Source of the DNA: an uncultured Bacillota bacterium
GTDB lineage: Bacteria; Bacillota; DTU025; MWDF01
Assembly: GCA_963823655.1 (NCBI GenBank)
Contig: CAWGMK010000010.1
Span: 416,001-480,000 of the forward strand
Direction of reading: 5' to 3'
Length of the DNA: 64,000 nt
Positions 24,830-59,227 of the stretch are shown here, piece by piece (the stretch's first letter is position 1; each line of letters starts with the position of its first letter). The translations under genes and the position numbers were made by a program. The notes under the pieces are model-generated. The model made no database searches, was not told where the DNA came from, and saw only the letters and a program-made list of their open reading frames with translations.

Positions 24830-26539
24830 ATGATAAGAGGCGGCAAAGGCAGGGCAGTCATAATCCTTTTGGCAGCCATGGGTCTAGTCGTAGCAGCGTC
24901 TGCTCTGGCATCGGCCCAGTCTTACGGCAGGCTTGCCAGCATAGAGATCGAAGGCAACAGGAAACTGGATGCCGAATTTATAAAAAGCCTGATGCCATTG
25001 ACCATAGGGATGGATTTGACACAGGAGGACCTGGACAAGACCTTCGCGGCGATGCAGGCAAGCGGATATTTCGCCGATCTGGGGGCGCGTTCGCAGTCTT
25101 TCCTGGGCGGAATCAAGCTCATTGTCACGGTGGAGGAATTCCCGGACCTCAATACGATAGCAATCTCCGGCAATACGCTAATAAGCACGGAGCAGCTGCT
25201 ATCTCGCATGAAGTCCACTGTTGGCAAGATGATCAACATAAACACCGTCAAGGAGGACCTGGACGGGATAATCGCCCTCTACAAGGAGGATAACAGGATT
25301 GCCACCGTCCAACCCGACATCAGCATGGACGGGGTGCTGACCATAGTTATAATCGAATGGAAGGTCGGCTTGGTACAGATTACCGGAAACGAGAAGACGA
25401 AAGAGGAGATTATCAGGAGGAACATCAGGGTAACAGAAGGCGACTTCATCGATACCCAGGTCCTTTCTGATGACAGCCGCCGCATATACAACACGGCGAT
25501 ATTCGAGGATGTGGGAGTCGAGCTTCTGCCCAAAGACGAGGGCCCGTATGCCGACATCACATTCGTGGTCACGGAGACTAAGACGGGGCTTTTCAATGTC
25601 GGCGCAACTTACAACTCGGCTGAAGGCCTCATCGGCTACATAGAAGTATCCGACAAGAACGTATTCGGCTACGGCATCACAGTTTCCGGCAAGCTGGAGG
25701 CGGGCGGCAAGGAGAAGCAGATCCTCGGCGAATTCAGCATATCTACGCCGTACCTGTTCACAGACAAGCTCAGCGGAGGCCTCGAAGTGTACCGCAAGAT
25801 GGCCAACAAGACCATAGACATAGATGAGGACGAAGAGGAGAACGACCTCGACGATCTCATCTACAAGCAGTACAGGACCGGCGGCAGCATATGGATGGGA
25901 TACAATTTCGACCTGTACACCAAGGCGGGTGCGTCTTTCAGGGTCGATTTCATTGAGAACCAGTCTGAGTTGCCATCTCCCGCAGTGCCGGCCGATACAT
26001 CCACCAGGAGCATCACGCTGTCTCTTAACAGGGATACCAGGAACGACTTCATTAACCCCACCAAGGGATACACCATCTTCGCCTCTACGGAGTTCGCAGG
26101 CGGCATTCTAGGCGGGGACGACAATTTCACCAAGCTCTTCACCCAGCTGACGGGCTACTATGAGTTCAAGGACGGCCAGGTGATAGCGGGGCGCCTCGGC
26201 GCTGGCGCCGGTATAAAGCCGCTTCCCTCACATGTTAAGTTCCTGCTTGGCGGCGGGGACAACCTAAGAGGCCTCAAAGAGCCCATAGAGGGCGACTATA
26301 TAGTATTCGGCAATGCCGAGTACAGGTTCCGCATCTATGAGGAGATCGTCGGCGGCGTGGTATTCTTCGACCTCGGCCAGGCCTGGAACAAGGGCGAGGG
26401 CTTCACATTGGACGGGATGAAGTACGGCGTCGGCATAGGCGCAAGGGTCACAATACCGATGCTCGGGATGATAAGGCTCGACTACGGCATCTCAAACGGT
26501 CAGGGCCGGGTGTATTTCGGCTTCGGTCATACGTTCTAA
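24830..26539 (+). CDS. bamA: Outer membrane protein assembly factor BamA (3 POTRA + Omp85 barrel)
   Basis: POTRA starts IEIEGN, IAISGN, VQITGN; LGGGDNLRG motif; IRLDYG; C-terminal YFGFGHTF. Confidence 0.93.
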   Translation: MIRGGKGRAVIILLAAMGLVVAASALASAQSYGRLASIEIEGNRKLDAEFIKSLMPLTIGMDLTQEDLDKTFAAMQASGYFADLGARSQSFLGGIKLIVTVEEFPDLNTIAISGNTLISTEQLLSRMKSTVGKMININTVKEDLDGIIALYKEDNRIATVQPDISMDGVLTIVIIEWKVGLVQITGNEKTKEEIIRRNIRVTEGDFIDTQVLSDDSRRIYNTAIFEDVGVELLPKDEGPYADITFVVTETKTGLFNVGATYNSAEGLIGYIEVSDKNVFGYGITVSGKLEAGGKEKQILGEFSISTPYLFTDKLSGGLEVYRKMANKTIDIDEDEEENDLDDLIYKQYRTGGSIWMGYNFDLYTKAGASFRVDFIENQSELPSPAVPADTSTRSITLSLNRDTRNDFINPTKGYTIFASTEFAGGILGGDDNFTKLFTQLTGYYEFKDGQVIAGRLGAGAGIKPLPSHVKFLLGGGDNLRGLKEPIEGDYIVFGNAEYRFRIYEEIVGGVVFFDLGQAWNKGEGFTLDGMKYGVGIGARVTIPMLGMIRLDYGISNGQGRVYFGFGHTF

Positions 26540-27130: not shown

Positions 27131-27155
27131 CACATAAGTGACAGGAGTTGCCTCA

Positions 27156-30100
27156 ATGAGGAAGCTTGACCGGTATGTGGCGCGGGAGTTCCTAGGCCCA
27201 TTCTTTGCCGCAATAACCGCGTTCATCGTCATATCCCTCAGCGTCCAGCTCTTCTGGCTGGCCGAAATGGTCGTGGTCAAGCACACCCCCCTTGCGACCG
27301 TATTGAAGCTCATACTCTACAACATACCCACAGCACTGGTACAAGTTCTCCCCTTCGCCACCCTTTTTGCGGTCCTGCTAGGATTGGGCAGGCTAAGCCG
27401 GGACAGCGAGCTTTCGATAATGAGAGCCGCAGGCCTCAGGCTTTCCAGGATCGCAGCCCCCATGATATTCATAGCGCTTCTTATCAGCGCATTCGGCTTC
27501 TATATGGGCGACCAGGTGGCCCCCAAGGCCAATTTGGAATCGCGCAACATCGTAAACAGGATGATCCTGGGCGACAGCATACCGGGGATTGAGAACAACG
27601 TCTTCTTCCGCGGGCCCGACAACAAGTTCTTCTATATCGGCCGGGTGAGCGAGGACAGGGCGACTGTCCAGGACATCATGATATATGACATCGGATACGG
27701 GAAGTACCCGCAGCTGATAACAGCGGCCAAGGGGCAGGCGGACTCTGGAGTATGGGTATTCCTCGACGGCAACATCCATGAGTGCGGTTCGGACGGAAGG
27801 GTAGTATCGACGGCCCATTTCGATTCGCTGGAAATCAGGATGGAGCGCGCGGTCACAGATTATACGAATTCCGGCAGGACAACCTCCGAAATGTCGATGA
27901 AGCAGCTTAAAGAGAGCATCTCGCTCTTCACGAAAAGCGGCATCAAGGCCAAGAACCTTCTCATAGACTACTACCTCAAGATCGCCCAGCCCATCTCATC
28001 CCTGATTTTTGCAATACTGGCAGTGCCTCTTGCAGTACGAAGCCCCAGGCGCGGAGGGGCCGTCTACAGCATCGCCGCCGGCATACTTATCGTTACCTTG
28101 TACTTCATATTCGAATCGGTGATACGCTCGTACGGAATGCTCCAGGCGACAAGGCTTCAGCCCTGGATGGCGGCATGGTCCGCTGACATCATCTTTATGG
28201 TGGTGGCCCTCATCCTTCTTATAAGGGCGGATTCGAAGAGGATGAGAAAGCGCATCCGTAAGCCCAAAGGGCCGGCAACAGCCATTATCCTGCTCATAGC
28301 CCTCGTACTTCTTCTGCAGCCGTCAATTGCGGCTGCGGCCGGGACGAATGTCAAGGTAACAGCCGAAAGGCTGGTTTATGAGGGCTCGGACATATGGCGC
28401 GCCGAGGGCAAGGTTGAGGTTTCCTTCGATGATGTCGTGGTGAGGGCTGATACCGCAAGAATCGACCTTACGACGAACAAGGCCGAGCTCACAGGATCGG
28501 TTACAGTAGAAATGAAGGGCAGCGTCATCTCCTCGGGCCTTGCCGTCGTGGACATAAAGACTAAGGAAGTCACTTTCGGGGCGTTCGAAGGGCGGGTAAG
28601 CGACGAGCGGGTAGAAGGGTACATCTACATCAACGGGGCCGGGTTCACCGAGAAGGACGGAGACTACAAGCTGACGGATGGCTATCTGACCACATGCGAC
28701 CTGCCTCAGCCTCACTACAGGATAGAGGCCAAAAGCATAGAGTTCACCGAAGCTGACGTCATAGTCGCAAAAGACGTTTCATACTTCGAGGGCAATATTA
28801 GGCTCCTGCGCCTTCCTTCGCTGACCATACCTCTTAGGGAGGAGGACAGGATCATCCTTCCTGAGTTCGGCTGGAGCGGAATAGACGGCGCATACATCAA
28901 AACTACGATGAAAAGGCAGCTTAACGAGGACAACAGGCTGACACTAAGGCTGGATTTCTTCACGGTAAGCGGCCTGGGGCTGGGCCTGAAGCACGAGTAC
29001 GGCATAGAACGGCAAAGGTGAATGGATACTACTCCCTGTATGTGCTAAAAAGCCTGATGAACCCCGCCTCCGACTGGACCGCCGAGATCTCGCAGACGCT
29101 TAAGCTGCCTTTGGATATCATAGCGACCGGCAAGTATTCTTACAGGAATACAACAAATGCGAGCCTTGCCAAATCGGAGGAGCACTTCGCCGAGCTCAAA
29201 CTGAACAGGAGCGTGGAGGACGACAAGACCGCGATTGCCGCATCTTACCGATACAAGGACGCAGTAGCCGATACATCCACCTTGAACTTGTCTGCATCCC
29301 ACTCCATGACGCTCTTAGAGGATATCAAGCTGTCGGGAAGCGTAAGCTACAGGAGGACCGAGATAAACGACGCTTTGAATTTCGAGAGCATGACTTACAA
29401 GGCAACTTTGTCCCACCAGACGGAACAGGGAAGGCTTACGCTAAACGTCCAGGCCTCCGAAACGATGAACGAAAGCCAGGAAGTAGTCGTCGCTTCGTTG
29501 AAAAGGCTGCCTGAGCTGCAAATAGAGCTTTTCAAGATGCCTATCGGGAAGCTGCCTTTAAACATCGGCGTCAAGATGACTGCCGGCAGGTACGTGGAGA
29601 GGATTCTCAATACTGACCCGATAGAGTTCTCTGGATGCGGGCAAGGGCGAGGCTGATATTAGCCTTGCCATCGACAGGGTGGACCTTTGGGGATTCGCCA
29701 CATACGATCTGGCCGGCACATTTATCGGCAGCCTCTACTCTACCGGGGATTCAAGGGCGTACCTTGGCGTAGCGACTTCGCTGAATGTGACTCCGATAAA
29801 GGGATGGGGCATAAAGCTGTCGTACGATTACTTGAAGGGCTTCGGTTCGAGCCCATACAGGTTCGACGCGCTTAACGAGAAGAACAAGATTGCCCTGTCT
29901 ACTTCCGCTTCGTTCTACGGCGTAACTGCTTCTGCTTCGTCGGGCTACGACTTCATCAAACTGAAGTACGACAGCCTCTCCGCGGGGCTAGGCTACAAAT
30001 TTGAGGACAAGTACCAGGCGGATGTCACAGCGAAGCTTTCCCTGCCGGATTTCGGGATACAGACTATTGTAGGAAGGCTCACCATAAGCCCTATCGAGGA

Positions 30101-30398
30101 AGTAAGCCTGAAGTTCGGCCTAGAGTACAATGGTTCGCTCAACAAGATTAGCAAGATCGAGACGAGCGGGAGCCTTAGCATACTCAAGGAGTGGAAGGTA
30201 GGCTGGGCGGTAATATACGATGTGGCGAGGGAAGGCTTGAGGAAGGCGGACTTCGCGCTGACAAAGGATTTGCACTGCAGGGAGATAACGGCAGGCTACC
30301 AGGTCGTTGACAAGAGGTTCTTCGTCAACTTCAAGTTCAAGGCCTTCCCTGACATACCGATCGGGATCGGCTCGGACGACTGGAGCCTATTTAACTAG
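27156..30398 (+). CDS. LptF/LptG permease read in frame with an LptD-like protein (frameshifts near 29010 and 29630)
   Basis: LptF/G motifs KLDRYVAREFLGPF and RLSRDSELSIMRAAG; then OstA/LptD-like TTCDLPQPHYRIEAKSI and PEFGWSGIDG; barrel C-terminus KDLHCREIT...FKFKAFP in ORF 29679..30398. Confidence 0.8.
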
Positions 30399-32496: not shown

Positions 32497-33837
32497 TTGA
32501 ACGGAGTAGTGCTGATTGCCGTATTGGCAATAATAGGAGGCCTTGTCGCAATCGCAGGCGACAGGATAGGCATGCGCATAGGGCGCAAGAGGCTTACCCT
32601 CTTCGGGCTCAGGCCGAGGCACACTTCTATTCTGATAACCTTCATAACCGGCATCGTGGTCGTCGCGCTCACTGTCGCTGTCTTGTCCCTGCTTTCTGAG
32701 AACGTAAGGATTGCGATCTTCAAGATACAGGAGCTTCGCAGCGACCTTGCGGAAACGAATGAAGTGCTCAAGGTTACCAAACAGGAATTGACCCTCAAGA
32801 TGGACGAAGCGCAGCAGCTTACCGACAGGGTGGAGAGCATCGGCAAGCAGTATGAGTCCTTGAAGTCCGATTATGGGATAATCAGTGCCGAGCTTAGCGA
32901 TGCGAACGCCGAGAAGGTTCAGACATATAATGAGTTGAAAAGCCTGAAAACGGGCCTTGAGGAAATACAAAGGAAGCTCGTTTCCACAGAACAGGATTTA
33001 AACGCCGCAAGCGCGGAAATCGTCGAATCGGATTTGATGCTAAAAAGCCAGCAGAGCGAGATTTCGGGCTTGTCATCCGAAAGGGAGCTGCTCGAAAAGG
33101 AGATCCTAAGCCTTCAGGACACCAGATCAAAGCTCATCGAAGAGGCAGCGGTGCTTGAAAAGCAAGTGGACAGCCTGATGCAGACAAGCCTGCTGCTCAT
33201 ACAGAGCAAGCAGACCTCGATGACAAGGCAGGTCATCTTTTATGCCGATCAGATTATATTGGGTACTGTGATAGACTGCGTGCAGCCTGTTGAAATCATC
33301 CATACCCAGATAAACGACTTCCTGATAAAGGTCAACACGCTGGCCAAATCAAAGGGCGCGGGGGAAGTGGCGGGCCGCCAGGACGGCTCCGTGCTGAATT
33401 TCGACGAGGACAATGTTCTTAGTGCTTTCCAGAAAGTATATTCGTCTTCCGGCAAGGTGGTAATGAGGGCCGTATCGCCGGTCAACAGCTGGCCGGGCGA
33501 ACCTCTTTGGATTTCTCTTCATACATTGCCGGATGAATTGATCTTCTTTGAAGGCCAAGTAGTCGCCAGCAGGGATGCAGACGGCAGGCTCGGAGCCGAC
33601 AGGATACAGCTTGAGATTCTAGGCCTAATTGAAGAGGTAAATGCGATTGCGCTGGCCAAAGGCATGGTTAGCGACGATGAAGGGCGCATAGGGACTTTCA
33701 TTAAAGCCCTTCAATTTACCGAGGCAATCATCGCGGCTTTGGAGTCGGGCCGCACAGTCAAGATAGAAGTCAAAGCGGAAGAGGACATCTGGCGCAGTGA
33801 TAGCACACCTACAATGGGTTTGCATGTGGTATATTAA
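32497..33837 (+). CDS. DUF3084 family membrane-anchored coiled-coil protein
   Basis: GDRIGMRIGRKRLTLFGLRPRHTS signature followed by a long coiled coil. Confidence 0.9.
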   Translation: MNGVVLIAVLAIIGGLVAIAGDRIGMRIGRKRLTLFGLRPRHTSILITFITGIVVVALTVAVLSLLSENVRIAIFKIQELRSDLAETNEVLKVTKQELTLKMDEAQQLTDRVESIGKQYESLKSDYGIISAELSDANAEKVQTYNELKSLKTGLEEIQRKLVSTEQDLNAASAEIVESDLMLKSQQSEISGLSSERELLEKEILSLQDTRSKLIEEAAVLEKQVDSLMQTSLLLIQSKQTSMTRQVIFYADQIILGTVIDCVQPVEIIHTQINDFLIKVNTLAKSKGAGEVAGRQDGSVLNFDEDNVLSAFQKVYSSSGKVVMRAVSPVNSWPGEPLWISLHTLPDELIFFEGQVVASRDADGRLGADRIQLEILGLIEEVNAIALAKGMVSDDEGRIGTFIKALQFTEAIIAALESGRTVKIEVKAEEDIWRSDSTPTMGLHVVY

Positions 33838-33906
33838 TTACATGATATTTTTCCAAGCCTTTTGCTCTGCCTTGATAAAAAAGCACAATTAGATGTATAA
33901 AGAAGA

Positions 33907-33931
33907 AGGATTACTAGCTTTATTGAAGAAA
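33907..33931 (+). promoter_or_regulatory. SigH-like promoter of the SLH-porin gene
   Basis: AGGA-N17-GAAA. Confidence 0.5.
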
Positions 33932-34099
33932 ATATAAGAGAAAATACTATTCAATGCCCTGCCCGTTCGCAAAAAAACATCAAAGGGCGCGCATAAGGGC
34001 GTAAGATCAAACCACCGGTGAAGGAAACTAGGAAACTTCACTGGTGCGGAGGTTTATGGTTTGGTGGTTAATCAACAAAGCCAAGGGGGGTAAGAACAC

Positions 34100-37000
34100 A
34101 TGAAGAGAACCGTAGCAATGCTAATTGCGGTTCTGCTTGCCGTGGCGGTAGCATTACCAGTCATGGCAAGTCCGTACACGGATCTGCCCGATACACATTG
34201 GGCACTATCGGCCGTGTATGAGTTGTCCGCACTAGGAATCTTCGAAGGCTATCCTGACGGAACCTTCAAGGGACCGCAGCCAGCAACGAGGTACGAACTG
34301 GCAGTAGTCATCGCCAGGCTCCTGAAGTATCTGGACCAGGAGATAAGTGCCCGCATGGCGGCATTGGAAGCCAAGATTCCGGCTGCCACAGCGGCGGCAG
34401 TCGTACCGACTCCGACTCCCGTACCGACACCCGCGCCGGTAACCACGGTTGTTCAGGTGGAGCCCGACCAGACAATTCTTGAGACCATTATCAGGGAGAA
34501 GATCGAAGCCCTGGTAGGGCCCAAGTTTGAGGACATTGACGAGAGGATCGCTGAACTCTATGCAATGATCCAGGACCTCAAGACAGAGTTCTCCCGCGAG
34601 CTCTCAGTCCTTGGCGTCCGCGTGACAGCCCTGGAAGATGAACTCGCAAAGATCAAGGAGAGGCTGGCCAAAGCAGAGGCAAACATCGGCGCCCTGCAGC
34701 TCCAGCTGGATCCCGCTCTTGTAAGGATAACGGTCCTCGAGAGCAGAGCGAACGCAGTCGACAGGCAGCTTGAGGAGCTCAACCTCGCCCTGTCCCAGAA
34801 GGCGAACGCCCCCGAAGTAGAAGCGCTCAAGGCGCTAATACTCGGCCTCGAAAAGGACAACGCGGCACTAGCGGCAAGAGTAGCCGCCCTGGAAGGCAAG
34901 CCTGCGGTAGTGATACCGCCGATGCCTGTAATACCCGCCGCGGCCAAGCCTGAGGAAGTTGAGGCCCTTAAGGCCCTCATGCTTTCGATGGAAAGAGACA
35001 AGGCAGCCTTGGCAGCAAGGGTTTCCGCCCTTGAAGCCGTCAAGCCTGTAGTAGCTCCGGTAATTACAGCACCGGTCGTCCCGGCCCCTGTAGTGCCGGC
35101 GCCAGTAGTACCCCGCTCCAGTAGTAGTGAGCTCTGGAGTAAGCGCAGCCGAGCTAGCTGCAGTCAAGGCATTGGTGCTCAACCTCGAAGCTAACAAGGT
35201 CGACGTGCTTATGTCCAAGCTGGGCGCCCTCGAGTCCAAAGTACTCGCCCTCGAATCCAAGCTCAACACAGTTGACACAAGGGTAGGCAACCTTGAGCTC
35301 AAGTCAAACGAGCTCGAAGCCGAAGTCGACATGGTGGCCGCGCAGTCCGGACAGAATGCAGCCGACATAATCGACCTCTACAGCCTCTCCTATAAGAATA
35401 CCGATGATCTCAACTTCCTGAAGGCAGACCTTGCTGCAAAGTTTGCGGACCTTGAGGCCAGACTGGCCGCCAAGCCCGAAGCAGTAGCAAGCGTTTCAGG
35501 CGCAAGCCCTGAGAGCGTTGCCCTTCTGAAGTTGGACATCCTTGAGGCTCAGGATGACATAGAGAAGCTGAAGGCCCTCTATGCGCAAGTCGGAGACCTC
35601 ACCGCGCGCCTTGATGCAGCCGAGTCGAAGCTGATGCTCCTCGACGAGAAGGTTGCCATGCTCAATATGGACCTTGCGGCACTTGAGAGCGAGAAGGTAG
35701 ACAATGCCCTCGTAAGGATCGGCCTGCTCGAGCTTCAGACCGCTGATCTATATGACAAGTATGGCATGTTGGCTGACGGCCTCAACGCGATGGGCCTTGA
35801 AGTCACCAGGAACTCGGAAGACATCAACGACTTGTACATCCAGCAGAACAAGACCAACAACCTGCTCAAGAACCTGGCAGCAGCTGACCTCGCCCTCAAC
35901 GACAGGGTAGCGGCCATAGAAGCGGCCAACAAGATAAGCGCAGATGCCCTGGCAGCAAGGGTAGCTTCCCTTGAAGGCGCATCGGCAGAAGGCGCAGCGG
36001 AGACGCTAAGCCTTAAGAACGGCCTGATGGGATTGATCGACAAGGTATCGAACCTCTGGATCAACAAGTTCCTGCTCTCAGGATCGTTTGAAGTCAAGTT
36101 CACCGATGTGGCCGTCGTAATGGGATTGCCGTACAAAGATCCGTTCGACAACACGACCACAGCTATAGTTCCGAGCAATTCGTACTACGGCAAGCTGACA
36201 TTGAAGGCGACGATCAAGCCTGAGCCCGGCGTGGAAATCAATGTCGGTCTTAATGCCGGCGTAGATACTTATGGCATAAGCGATGTCAGCGCCCTCGTGT
36301 TCAACGGCGACCTCGACATCAAGGTCACCTCGCCCAACGGCTACGGCCAGCTCATCGGCGGCGAGCAGGCCAGGCCCAAGTATCTCAGCAAGTACGTATT
36401 CTCATCGATCCTGTTCGCAGACGAGGCGTTTGAAGGACTCGGCGGCTGGGCGAAGTTCGCACCCGGCATGGAAGGTCTGACACTGGGCGCCTCCGCAATA
36501 GTCGCGAAGAAGGGTTCGACCACCGACTTCAGGTATGTATGGGGAATGGCCGGCAATGTGAACTACGCTGACGTAGCCGATCTTACTCTCTACTACTTCG
36601 CAATCGATGACGCACCCAACTCGGGCGACATCCCGGGCGTCTATGATGGAACCGAAGATCACATCGGCCTCAGCGCAGACTTCAAAATGGGCGAGAACTG
36701 GACGGCAGGCGCATTCGCCAACCTGTTCTTCAACGATGTGAACCCGGATCCGGAGAGCGCAATCACCGCATACATCGATGGCAAGGTCGGAGTATGGAAC
36801 ATGAGCCTTGGCTTCGAGCGCGTGAGCGATGCCTACACACCGATGTATGCTGAGTTCGTCGACACCGACGATCCGGACATCATCGAGAACGACATAATGA
36901 ACCTTACGATGAGCAATAGCTTCGACGTCCTGCCCAACCTGGTATTCGGTCTGGATACCGAGCTCAACGGCGACGACGATTGGGCCAACCTGACCCATAT

Positions 37001-37722
37001 CAACGAAGTGTATGCCAAGTACTCGTTCGGCAAGGCGACTGACCTGTTCAACGGATCGCTGAAGCTCTACGGCGGACGTGAGTCCGACATAGTGATAGGC
37101 GGCATATGGAACGTACCCGTACCGGATGCCGACGGACTGTGCTATGCAGGAGCTGACCTCAAGCTGAAGCTTTACATCTTCAACGCGGGCTTCTCCTACT
37201 ACACAGAGACCTACGACATAGCGGGTGTCTTTGCCGGAATAATACAACAAGTACACTGCATACCTCAACACGGAGCTCTCCCTCATACCCGACATCCTGA
37301 AGGCTAAGGCCGGATGGAAGGGCGTGTTCGGTGACTTCACAGGCAACTACCAGGAGCTCTACGGCGAGTTGAACCTCACCACCGGCTTCGCGGTCAAGTG
37401 GAACCTGGCAGCCAACCTGGGCGTGTACTTCAAGACCACAACGATGTTCAAGGTCTATGGCGATGCCAAGCTTACCTACAACCTGTCCAACACCGCCAGC
37501 CTCTACGCAATGGCAGCCGGCGAGTACAGGAACAGCGTAAGCGCAGCCAAGCCTGATGGCTTCGTGCTGTCAGCAGGCCTGGGCTACAACCAGAAGATCT
37601 TCAACGCTACGAGCCTTGTCGCAGACTTCACCACCAAGTACGTCAAGTACACCTACAACCCCGGTGGATACGCCGACAACCTCGTGAACACGCTTGGCAT
37701 AAAGCTGAGCACCACGTTCTAA
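34100..37722 (+). CDS. OmpM-type protein: SLH domain + very long coiled coil + beta-barrel (~1200 aa; frameshifts near 35113 and 37241)
   Basis: SLH YTDLPDTHWA...GYPDGTFKG...TRYELA; heptad repeats; amphipathic strands ending LGIKLSTTF; an extra C in cccc at 35111-35114. Confidence 0.85.
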
Positions 37723-37736
37723 GCTAAAACCGGACT

Positions 37737-37779
37737 AGCCCCGAGGAGCATTGATTTGCTCCCCGGGGCTTTTTTCTTT
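37737..37779 (+). terminator. Strong intrinsic terminator
   Basis: AGCCCCGAGGAGCA...TGCTCCCCGGGGCT followed by TTTTTCTTT. Confidence 0.9.
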
Positions 37780-38318: not shown

Positions 38319-39650
38319 ATGCAGGCCATACGCAGCAAATCCCCGATTCTCCTATTCGCTTTGATATTGCTGCTCGCGTTGCCGATTGCTGCCGCGGCCG
38401 AGCCCGAAGTGCTGAAATCCGACGATTGGAGATACAGGGCCCTTGCCGAGCTTGCAACCCATAGCGTGCTTGATGAGAAAGACGCCCCGTACTACCTGAC
38501 TAAGATACCTATCAACCTGGACTTCGCAGTGGCATCCGTCGAGAGGGCGCTAATCAAGCTAGGGCTGAAGGACATAGATTTTACAAACGCGGCATCCCTG
38601 GACCTGAGCCTTTACGGCACATCGGTTCAGAAACTTGCGCCGCGCGATTCCTGGCTTCTTAACGATCTTACGAAGGAGTTTGCAACGCAGCTTGCCACAA
38701 GGGGCATTGTGGGCAAGGCCTCGCCTGTTCAAGCACAAGCCGGGGACACTGCAGCAGCAGCCCTTCCCGTATCCGATGCACAAGCTTCGCCGGAGCCGCC
38801 CGCCGCGCAGCAGGGCCCGGTCGTCCTTTCGCTTACAGATGTGCTGAAGAAGATAAATATGCCCTCTGCGCTGTCGCAATCGTCCCTTACGATGAAGCCG
38901 CAGGACAATACGATACCTCAGGTGGCTACGGGCATGGAGCCGCTTCAGGTAGGAAGCATCAATCCTGACACGTCCAAGGTAGTCAGCCTTTTCGATGTTC
39001 TGAATGTCAACGCCTCGCTGTTTGCGGACGATTCCACCGTAAACGGCAAATCAAGCGCCGGCATAGGCCTCAAATTGGGCGATGACCAGGGCGGGGGCCT
39101 GACTTTAGATTATAAGATGGTTGGAGGCAAGGACGAGGCTTCAAACCTCACCGACCTTTCCGCCATAACCGGAGTGGGCGTCAAGTACCAGGTGAACAGC
39201 ATCATGCCCTTTAAGAGCGTGACGGACAGCATTACGATACAAGCGGGTTACAATATCGAAAGCGGAGACCTGAAGGCGGCAGTAGATACCGGAATTGAGC
39301 TGCAAGCTTCGGCATCCCTTGGCATATATTACAAGCTGCTTCTCGGCAACGCGGCCTTCCTTCAGGCAGGATATCAGGTTGAGCAGGTCAGGAACCTGAT
39401 CGCTTCGGGTGCCCTTTCGACCAAGTCATGGATGTATGACGACAGCTCGCCTTTAGGCTGGATCTTCAGGGGCTCACTGAGCCTCAACAGCGATGTGGGC
39501 GTCAAGCAGCTGGCAGGAATAGACGTCGGGTATAACCTTTTCAAGGACGCCTCTATTATGATCGGCTACAGGCTTATAGACTTCTCCGACTTCGACAAGC
39601 TGGATCTAAAGAAGAACCTGACCGCCCTGGGCATTAGCATCAAGTTCTAA
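38319..39650 (+). CDS. Putative outer-membrane beta-barrel protein with a degenerate SLH-like N-terminus
   Basis: Signal peptide, SDDWRYRALAELA, KEFATQLATRG, Ala/Pro linker, alternating strands, C-terminal LGISIKF. Confidence 0.6.
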   Translation: MQAIRSKSPILLFALILLLALPIAAAAEPEVLKSDDWRYRALAELATHSVLDEKDAPYYLTKIPINLDFAVASVERALIKLGLKDIDFTNAASLDLSLYGTSVQKLAPRDSWLLNDLTKEFATQLATRGIVGKASPVQAQAGDTAAAALPVSDAQASPEPPAAQQGPVVLSLTDVLKKINMPSALSQSSLTMKPQDNTIPQVATGMEPLQVGSINPDTSKVVSLFDVLNVNASLFADDSTVNGKSSAGIGLKLGDDQGGGLTLDYKMVGGKDEASNLTDLSAITGVGVKYQVNSIMPFKSVTDSITIQAGYNIESGDLKAAVDTGIELQASASLGIYYKLLLGNAAFLQAGYQVEQVRNLIASGALSTKSWMYDDSSPLGWIFRGSLSLNSDVGVKQLAGIDVGYNLFKDASIMIGYRLIDFSDFDKLDLKKNLTALGISIKF

Positions 39651-58111: not shown

Positions 58112-59227
58112 AGATCAAAAAGCTTGTAATAAACGGATATTACGGATTGGGCAATGCAGGAGACGAGGCAGTCCTTGCAAGCGCCCTCAACGAGATAAAG
58201 TCCGTTAAGGCCGGACATTGAGGTTACGGTCCTTTCTGGAGATCCTTCGTCCACCACCGAAAGGTATGGCGTTGATTCGGTCCAAAGGAAGAGCTTCGCC
58301 GCCCTGAAGGCCATACGCTCTGCGGACCTCTACGTATCGGGAGGAGGAAGCCTGCTGCAGGATACAACGTCTGCGGCATCCATACTCTACTACCTGGTAA
58401 TGATGTTCGCCTCAAGGCTTCTTGGAACGCGCTATGCGATTTACGCAAACGGAGTGGGGCCGATAAGAAGGGGCTGGGCAAGGGGGCTTACCAGGATGGC
58501 GGTGGAGGGCGCTTCCAGCGTTAGCGTGCGCGATGCCGGCTCTATGAGGCTTCTTGAGGACATTGGGGTGCAAAGGGAGGATATCGTCCTCACCTCGGAC
58601 CCGGTCTTCACGATGAAAGGCGCCCCAAAAGACGCTGTGCTTGGCGAGATTGAGCGCGTCGCAGGAAGGAAAGCTGCAAAATTCGCGGAGCAGGGCGCAG
58701 GCAGGCTTGCCATATTCTCACTTAGGGAGTGGGCAGGGCTTGAAAACGGCATCCCGGCCCTGTGCGAGATGTCCTCTATTCTTAAAGATGCAGGTTTCCT
58801 GCCCATAGGATTGGCCTTCCAGCCGGGGCTGGACGAGGCGCCGCTCAAAAAGATTGCGACAGCTTGCGGGGGGGATGCGCCGATCATCCCCTGTGACTTC
58901 CATCCTGAGGTGACGGCGGGCATATTCAAAATGGCGGGGATTACGGTCGGCATGAGGCTCCATAGCCTGATAATGTCGGCGTCCGCCGGAGTGCCGGCTC
59001 TTGGCATAAGCTATGACCCGAAGGTGGATTTGCTGTTCGAGATGTTGCCCCTTGGCAGGTGCGTGAAGGTCCAAGATCTGAAAAACGAGGGGCCGTCGCA
59101 GCTTAGAGAGCTCATCGGCGAGCTAGCTGAGCAGAGCAGGAGGCTAATGGCGACGCTTGCCTCCGTACAAGACAGGGCATCGGACACCGTAGGTTTCATG
59201 CTCAGGAAGGCGGAAGAGGGAAGATGA
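58108..59227 (+). CDS. csaB: Polysaccharide pyruvyltransferase CsaB (frameshift near 58206; 5' part absent from the ORF track)
   Basis: Manual translation from ATG 58108 gives INGYYGLGNAGDEAVL; then SGGGSLLQDTTS, NGVGP, SVRD, GMRLHSLI, YDPKV. Confidence 0.9.

Follow-up and report, generated by a model that had tools for sequence, protein, structure and literature searches.

The window analysed here is a stretch of 64,000 nucleotides (nt) from an uncultured Bacillota bacterium (GTDB lineage Bacteria; Bacillota; DTU025; MWDF01; assembly GCA_963823655.1, contig CAWGMK010000010.1, positions 416,001 to 480,000 of the forward strand), and the locus of interest lies at positions 34100-37722 on the + strand, which also carries the parts of this gene described below. 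The assembly splits this locus into three open reading frames (ORFs), each in a frame of its own (34100-35194, 35109/35127-37307 and 37243/37324-37722), and at both transitions the frame is moved forward by one base. Read through, the three ORFs encode a protein of 1206 amino acids (aa; 338 + 709 + 1 + 158), which agrees with an initial annotation of the window, in which one protein of ~1200 aa had been proposed after repair of two indels. There is little doubt that the three ORFs form one gene, which encodes a tether of the SlpA/OmpM kind. Taken as a whole, the locus is best explained by a trimeric outer-membrane-to-wall tether that is encoded by a single gene, split by assembly errors and equipped with a stalk that acts as a hinged spacer, and we regard this combined explanation as probable.

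The gene is preceded by an intergenic spacer of 262 nt (33838-34099), which is richer in AT (GC content 0.448 at 33500-33999) and in which a Shine-Dalgarno-like AAGGGGGG and a short spacer can be read directly in front of the ATG (34083-34099). At its other end, a TAA stop codon is followed by a stem-loop of ~12 bp and a T-run (37738-37779; whole feature 37720-37779), which was recognised by eye and is likely an intrinsic terminator. The stem-loop has an 8-nt loop and one mismatch, and it is missing from the list produced by a consensus scan for promoters and terminators, whose sites were no more frequent than in shuffled sequences. No ribosome-binding site or terminator comparable to those at the gene ends was seen at either of the two breaks; thus, one ribosome-binding site and one terminator flank the whole read-through, which argues for one gene. 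The translation starts with a signal peptide (residues 1-24, ending in ...PVMA/S; 34100-34171), which is kept in 15/15 full-length relatives, and continues with a single SLH domain carrying a TRYE motif (residues 25-68; 34172-34303). The SLH domain of the initial annotation is thereby confirmed, since the match to PF00395 in a Pfam scan (E 3.8e-10) reaches 40 bits against a cut-off of 20.8. It is followed by a first Pro/Thr-rich linker (residues 93-123; 34376-34468), for which AlphaFold2 (AF2) gives a predicted local distance difference test value (pLDDT) below 50 at residues 94-120, and which ends in an invariant PDxTILE motif (columns P122, D123, T125, I126, L127 and E128 in the alignment of relatives). 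Next come a long helix that contains the conserved EFSRELSVLGVRVTALE block (residues 124-233; 34469-34798; pLDDT 73-85), two tandem stalk modules (34811-35039; repeat families D1, D3 and D4), a Pro-rich (PAPVV)n linker (residues 319-350; 35054-35150; 15-nt repeat D5; pLDDT below 50 at residues 315-338), which holds the first break, and the membrane-proximal part of the stalk (residues 349-648; 35145-36044), which is modelled as a trimeric coiled coil. The predicted C-terminal outer-membrane β-barrel (36045-37719) comprises 558 aa from residue 649 to residue 1206, has ~28 strands and ends in ...STTF, so that its last residue is Phe. A helical stalk of ~570-580 aa with five Pro-rich linkers and a barrel of this size correspond closely to the segmented stalk of ~570 aa and the Phe-terminated barrel region of ~550 aa that had been noted before.

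The first break coincides with a stretch of four consecutive C (35110-35113), where one extra base shifts frame 2 to frame 0; it is located inside the 15-nt PAPVV repeat, the copies of which are spaced by 15 and then by 16 nt. At the second break (37242-37245), one extra base at about 37243-37245 within ...GGAATAATACAACAAG... shifts frame 0 to frame 1; there is no repeat at this site, and congeners read AGI(I/N)NKY across it. In each of the five congener loci in which the gene is complete, it forms a single frame of 1050-1123 aa, and the same applies to nine complete loci from the same order (1144-1326 aa). Intact relatives are also found in the databases, namely P0003 (1216 aa) and P0004 (1198 aa); furthermore, the middle piece is matched in 17 of 30 relatives, each time without an internal stop, and a search of genome contigs for related loci returned two loci, both from congeners. 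It could be argued that the breaks are real gene boundaries, which would turn the locus into a bipartite, Thermotoga-style arrangement of an Omp-alpha-like SLH/coiled-coil protein, a coiled-coil and barrel protein and a small barrel fragment. The locus is indeed called as three ORFs, and GTG can serve as a start codon at 35127 and at 37324. The initial annotation itself had named gene boundaries at 35113 or 37241 as a reason to give up the single protein; this is, however, contradicted by the single frame of every complete relative and by near-identical strains that lack the extra bases. Moreover, the second break falls inside the barrel, leaving a third piece of 158 aa that consists of the last strands and the terminal Phe, and the breaks are devoid of gene-end signals; real boundaries are therefore very improbable. 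Hardly more credible is that the breaks represent programmed frameshifts or phase-variation switches. The first break, which falls in a few consecutive C inside tandemly repeated 15-nt units, would suit such a switch, but four C offer little scope for slippage, the second break lies outside any repeat, no relative needs a shift, and frame changes are scattered over many unrelated genes of this genome.

The near-identical strains are represented by Logan contigs from three wastewater runs (X1-X3), which are ~99% identical strains differing by ~1% from the window. Judged by the labels of X1-X3 and of a further run, X12, the lineage is present in metagenomes from wastewater and digesters; runs X4-X20 contain small shares of the stretch. 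The extra base at 35110 is absent in the contigs of X1 (depth 15.4) and X3 (5.95), and the extra base at 37243 is absent in those of X1 (depth 17.3) and X2 (5.06). The other indels found in these contigs keep the frame: an insertion of 6 nt at 34411 lengthens the Pro/Thr linker, and +1 plus +2 at 37339/37342 together add 3 nt in a loop of the barrel. Among the differences listed, 33 of 40 substitutions fall at third codon positions (there are 94 further ones), which indicates that the gene is under purifying selection in the population. Frame changes were also counted across the genome by mapping congener ORFs of at least 200 aa and at least 45% identity onto it. With 126 such ORFs, 29 distinct frame-change sites were found, of which 11, mostly +1 shifts, lie in the window between 24.3 and 60.8 kb, whereas the reciprocal test, in which 127 ORFs of this genome were mapped onto ~150 kb of congener sequence, gave 7 sites. 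Because the assembly is rich in frame changes, the split of the tether gene is probably an artefact as well, and it is very likely that both breaks are assembly errors rather than real mutations. Two points weigh against this conclusion: the reciprocal control is less powerful, since the ORFs of this genome are fragmented, and the contigs lacking the extra bases come from strains that are ~99% identical, so that real mutations in this one strain are possible. If both insertions were real, the gene would be a true pseudogene in this strain and the tether would have been lost or replaced. The sequence of the window as given does carry both breaks, and X1-X3, with a difference of ~1%, may represent other strains; nevertheless, the two hits in one gene sit among the many frame changes of the genome, the adjoining core genes RecD2 and LptF/G are broken too, no other gene combining SLH and barrel was found in the genome, and the listed strain differences are concentrated at third codon positions. 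A pseudogene is thus improbable, and the organism, or its population at the least, most likely has an intact tether protein. Further frame-change sites in the window are located at about 24311, 29009, 29647, 40679, 43500, 44933, 45468, 51964, 56180 and 60839, and the genes broken by them include the gene for LptF/G with its extension and RecD2. If the breaks are artefacts, frameshift-aware annotation is needed for this assembly.

When residues 1-338 were folded as a monomer with AF2 (mean pLDDT 62, helices 73-85), helices were obtained at residues 64-92, 124-233, 240-266 and 284-318, and between them the Pro-rich stretches at 93-123, 267-283 and 319-338 are of low confidence. Residues 240-318 consist of two copies of a 47-aa unit of 141 nt, each made of a helix of ~28 aa and a Pro-rich linker. 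The two helices (PEVEALK...AALE and EEVEALK...SALE) share 21 of 28 residues, and the corresponding DNA repeats at a spacing of 141 nt with ~70% identity; thus, the duplicated modules separated by Pro-rich hinges that had been described initially are real features of the stalk. A crude heptad score, a simple measure of our own that is not COILS or DeepCoil and is indicative only, reaches 0.8-0.9 at residues 169-224. An AlphaFold trimer had been put forward as a check of the stalk, and it was run on the membrane-proximal 300 residues. The three-copy model of residues 349-648, built with an 8-row alignment, obtained values of 0.72, 0.71 and 0.71 for the interface score ipSAE, and the best of three controls obtained 0.00; the three runs share at least 80% of their contacts and have a pLDDT of at least 81, and the model thereby reached the acceptance mark of the prediction tool. 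Contacts are made from residue i to residue i at a spacing of 3-4 residues, over residues 3-110 and 119-297 of the modelled piece, with a few 4-4 steps, and the only linker inside the piece, the eight residues PEAVASVS, leaves the register unbroken. According to this model, residues 349-648 would form an extended, parallel, in-register trimeric coiled coil of ~43 nm, and the N-terminal segments are presumably trimeric too. Coiled coils rise by 0.148 nm per residue. The ~459 helical residues, divided among five segments that are connected by five Pro-rich linkers, therefore correspond to ~68 nm; a further ~29 nm at most could come from the 94 linker residues, which gives a total of up to ~97 nm. 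Several observations tell against reading the entire stalk as one long trimeric rod. The trimer model spans 300 of the ~580 stalk residues, and the N-terminal half was folded as a monomer only, at the mean pLDDT given above. Residues 407-450 and 519-600 have low heptad scores; furthermore, the scoring of trimers was calibrated with two copies and with the alignments made by the tool itself, and resemblance to coiled coils of known structure can raise the interface score.

The length of the stalk varies considerably among relatives. In 14 full-length relatives (a fifteenth, L014, was left out due to a masked stretch), the barrel measures 541-573 aa and the part in front of it 490-776 aa, and even within the genus this pre-barrel part ranges from 490 to 658 aa. 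The EALKAL module is absent from L003 and L004, present once in P0003 and twice in the window. The stalk of P0004 contains a 20-aa AKNEADIAALKQQLAPVLDK unit in approximately eight tandem copies, and the stalks of other families of the order (L013, L028-L035) are built from many copies of a QKAELTMAFYDSI-type unit. The length of the stalk thus shifts between close relatives as helix-plus-linker modules are duplicated or lost. A comparison of stalk lengths across homologs, which the initial annotation had suggested, was also carried out for the barrel family as a whole: in 25 representatives the spacer between SLH domain and barrel is 139-709 aa long, compared to 581 aa here (one of the 26 representatives scanned had no usable barrel start). 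Long stalks are the rule in this barrel family as a whole.

A profile of 12 barrels of this kind retrieved 43 representatives among 1.84 billion proteins, and all 26 of the longer representatives that were scanned have one N-terminal SLH domain. The terminal L-x-T-x-F is invariant among relatives. AF2 modelling of the barrel of the congener L004, which is 64% identical to that of the window, with a 28-row alignment resulted in a structure with a pLDDT of 85 and 28 DSSP strands; two short strands (91-98 and 101-109) could form a loop hairpin, so that the strand count is 26-28. The top Foldseek match of this model is SlpA of Deinococcus (8ae1_A; E 5.6e-9; TM-score of 0.42 normalised to the query), and in the VIA comparison with SlpA 472-492 of 560 residues were aligned with a Z of 15.7 and a root-mean-square deviation above 9 Å. 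The top matches of Foldseek and VIA are all outer-membrane barrels. Kinship with SlpA is, however, called into question by three results. First, the Z of 15.7 ties with that of small porins (OccAB3, 15.5), and it is only the aligned length, which is far greater for SlpA, that separates them. Second, a search of all PDB chains with the barrel profile at E values up to 10 yielded a single unrelated match (Hsp82) and neither OmpM1 nor SlpA. Third, the Pfam family SlpA_C (PF21620) is touched by 1 of the 12 barrels (E 1.4e-4), and the modelled member and the pieces of the window are unmatched. Apart from that, a Pfam search of the window pieces and the 12 barrels gave weak, generic barrel matches only. 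Taken together, the modelled barrel is of the size of SlpA, and its sequence kinship to SlpA or to the OmpM of Veillonella is faint or absent.

OmpM proteins are defined as proteins that combine an SLH domain and a β-barrel porin in one polypeptide (Witwinowski et al., bioRxiv 10.1101/2021.05.31.446380). By this definition, the tether has the architecture of an OmpM: its SLH domain scores above the gathering threshold, a C-terminal outer-membrane barrel is predicted, and both are located on one polypeptide in the five congener loci, the nine loci of the same order and the contigs of the near-identical strains, whereas they are distributed over three ORFs in this assembly. The coiled-coil stalk is provided by the trimer model of residues 349-648, the remainder having been seen as a monomer. 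The designation as a giant OmpM therefore stands with regard to the order of SLH domain, stalk and barrel; it is not supported with regard to sequence homology, as the profile search against PDB chains provided no link between this barrel and the OmpM proteins of the Negativicutes, and the solved barrel that ranks first by Foldseek and by aligned length is that of SlpA. In VpOmpM1 of Veillonella parvula (Silale et al. 2023), the barrel comprises 16 strands and the stalk extends to approximately residue 113 (PMC10628300). Like the protein described here, it combines an SLH domain with a TRYE motif, a triple coiled-coil stalk and a barrel, and its gene is found in an outer-membrane cluster; in contrast, the protein of the window has ~28 strands and a spacer of ~580 aa, and it has Leu (HWAL) in place of the Tyr that VpOmpM1 carries two positions behind the SLH Trp (Y36). 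The role as tether and porin of diderm Firmicutes, which is predicted for the protein of the window, is a further feature in common with OmpM1.

The resemblance to SlpA (von Kuegelgen et al. 2022; PDB 8ae1, 7zgx and 8agd) lies in the combination of an SLH domain, a long homotrimeric coiled coil and a very large barrel in one chain, and SlpA provides both the top Foldseek match and the longest VIA alignment of this barrel. SlpA barrels are given 28-30 strands, with 30 reported for the structure (PMC9388160), and the model falls within this range with its 28 DSSP strands (26-28 given the possible hairpin). Nevertheless, the sequence of this barrel has no significant match to SlpA, and its 558 aa lack the large insertions of the SlpA barrel, which spans residues 254-1167. 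The coil of SlpA is continuous and ~28 nm long, with 'even longer' ones in Thermales and 'much shorter' ones in other OmpM proteins (PMC9388160), whereas in the stalk of the window ~68 nm of helix is divided into five segments by Pro-rich linkers; the host also differs, being a diderm Bacillota lineage of the lipopolysaccharide (LPS) type with an Lpt/BamA cluster. In Thermotoga maritima (Sexton et al. 2023), rods of Omp-alpha measure 45-50 nm and the lateral periplasm ~70 nm (PMC10160955). As in the window, the Thermotoga system includes an SLH domain with a coiled-coil rod, and a barrel partner gene is located next door. Furthermore, T. maritima carries a permease in which LptF/G, LptA and LptD are fused (PMC10160955), and an LptF/G protein with a long extension is encoded in the window (27138-30398). 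Rod and barrel are, however, encoded by separate Omp-alpha and Omp-beta genes in Thermotoga and fused in all complete relatives of the window's gene, the stalk of the latter is longer and hinged, and LPS genes are described as absent from Thermotoga (PMC10160955), whereas LptB, LptC and LptA are encoded in the window. In the literature consulted, in which coverage of subscription journals is limited, no OmpM or SlpA proteins of Bacillota with spacers of ~500-700 aa were described.

These features suggest a mechanism in which a trimeric protein of the SlpA/OmpM kind would tie the outer membrane to the cell wall. The single SLH domain would hold the wall, and the ~28-strand barrel would sit in the outer membrane, where it may also serve as a pore. 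If the other stalk segments behave like the modelled one, the stalk would form a hinged spacer of ~68 nm, or of up to ~97 nm with stretched linkers, which would keep the outer membrane far from the wall and whose length changes from one close relative to another as modules are duplicated or lost. The chance that the stalk is mostly extended in the cell, as the trimer model suggests, is about even. Alternatively, the stalk of an intact protein could bend back on itself at the Pro-rich hinges and form an array that is compact or runs parallel to the wall, so that the periplasm would be of ordinary width and the length of the stalk would not set the distance. Such folding back would fit with the five Pro-rich linkers, the two stretches with a weaker heptad signal and the variation of the stalk, which amounts to 168 aa between congeners and to 286 aa within the order; moreover, a compact, folded-back form of the VpOmpM1 stalk has been crystallised (PMC10628300), which weighs against an extended stalk. 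The difference of up to 168 aa between the stalks of congeners in particular argues against a rigid ruler and fits better with a slack or tilted stalk. In the trimer model, however, residues 349-648 are in register and parallel over the whole length with contacts from i to i and without any fold-back, even across the one linker that they contain. In addition, comparable rods exist, namely SlpA with ~28 nm (PMC9388160) and Omp-alpha with 45-50 nm in a periplasm of ~70 nm (PMC10160955). A folded-back stalk is thus rather unlikely.

Whether the tether spans an unusually wide space bears on the envelope of the whole cell. A wide, toga-like or extensible envelope, as initially suggested from the length of the stalk, is plausible; the trimer model and the adjacent Thermotoga-like Lpt fusion speak for the idea, and the hinges and the differing stalk lengths of congeners count against it. 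A more far-reaching scheme would assign a toga-like envelope to this diderm Bacillota order, in which the outer membrane would lie 60-100 nm from the wall, held by a module-tuned tether, and lipid would be carried across by a fused bridge of the LptF/G-LptD type that is encoded 4 kb upstream, as in Thermotoga. This scheme is possible and can be put forward only tentatively; if true, a toga-style architecture would exist inside the Firmicutes, and the width of the envelope would be an evolvable trait. SlpA/OmpM tethers are held to be the ancestral means of fastening the outer membrane in Terrabacteria, and their loss is one of the proposed routes from two membranes to one. Judged by main-text values, the longest rods described are those of Deinococcus SlpA, its counterparts in Thermales and Omp-alpha with the dimensions given above. 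A fused tether with ~68 nm of hinged helix that is conserved throughout a Bacillota order and differs in length from species to species would widen that range and hints at very wide or slack envelopes in some diderm Firmicutes.

The gene for the tether is embedded in a cluster for outer-membrane biogenesis with the order MurA, BamA (24830-26539), LptF/G, LptC, LptA, LptB, a DUF3084 protein, the tether, a YqgF-like ORF and a protein of 443 aa, and this neighbourhood speaks for a protein of the SlpA/OmpM kind. The nearest matches of MurA come from metagenome-assembled genomes named Firmicutes, Bacillota or Clostridia bacterium, followed by Negativicutes and Moorella at ~60%. The LptF/G protein with the long C-terminal extension matches the corresponding profile with residues 10-363 of 627. 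In a congener (G001), a single frame of 1084 aa covers this gene, which is broken by at least two frame changes in the window. The DUF3084 protein, encoded directly upstream of the tether (32497-33837; PF11283, E 5.9e-28), combines a membrane segment at its N-terminus with a long coiled coil.

The 443-aa protein (38319-39650, + strand) is a conserved downstream partner with a signal peptide and a C-terminal barrel-like region that, like the tether, ends in Phe. It was found in 22 of 30 relatives; both genes are present in 17 relatives, and in 14 of these it is encoded within ~3 kb downstream of the tether gene on the same contig and strand. Its sequence comprises an invariant DDWRY..EL..D motif with weak similarity to SLH and a conserved C-terminal region of ~220 aa, and the part between them is variable. 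When compared by hhalign, its N-terminus matches the signal peptide and SLH domain of the tether with a probability of 43% and an E value of 2.5e-4, and the protein shows no relation to the barrel profile. The Atlas lead for this protein is to SLH/porin clusters, and it may be a small, degenerate SLH-barrel partner.

Further downstream, a polysaccharide pyruvyl transferase similar to CsaB (58208-59020; PF04230, E 2.5e-33) is the only match to this family in the genome. PF04230 is the enzyme class that makes the usual ligand of SLH domains, and its presence is in keeping with a wall-binding tether; the family is broad and also has matches in E. coli. Outside the window, on another contig, an ORF on the - strand (G000:C13:331102-332097) encodes a protein of 332 aa in which an SLH domain is followed by a coiled coil; the open frame includes no barrel and is possibly cut by a frame change. 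This ORF represents an Omp-alpha-like second wall anchor.

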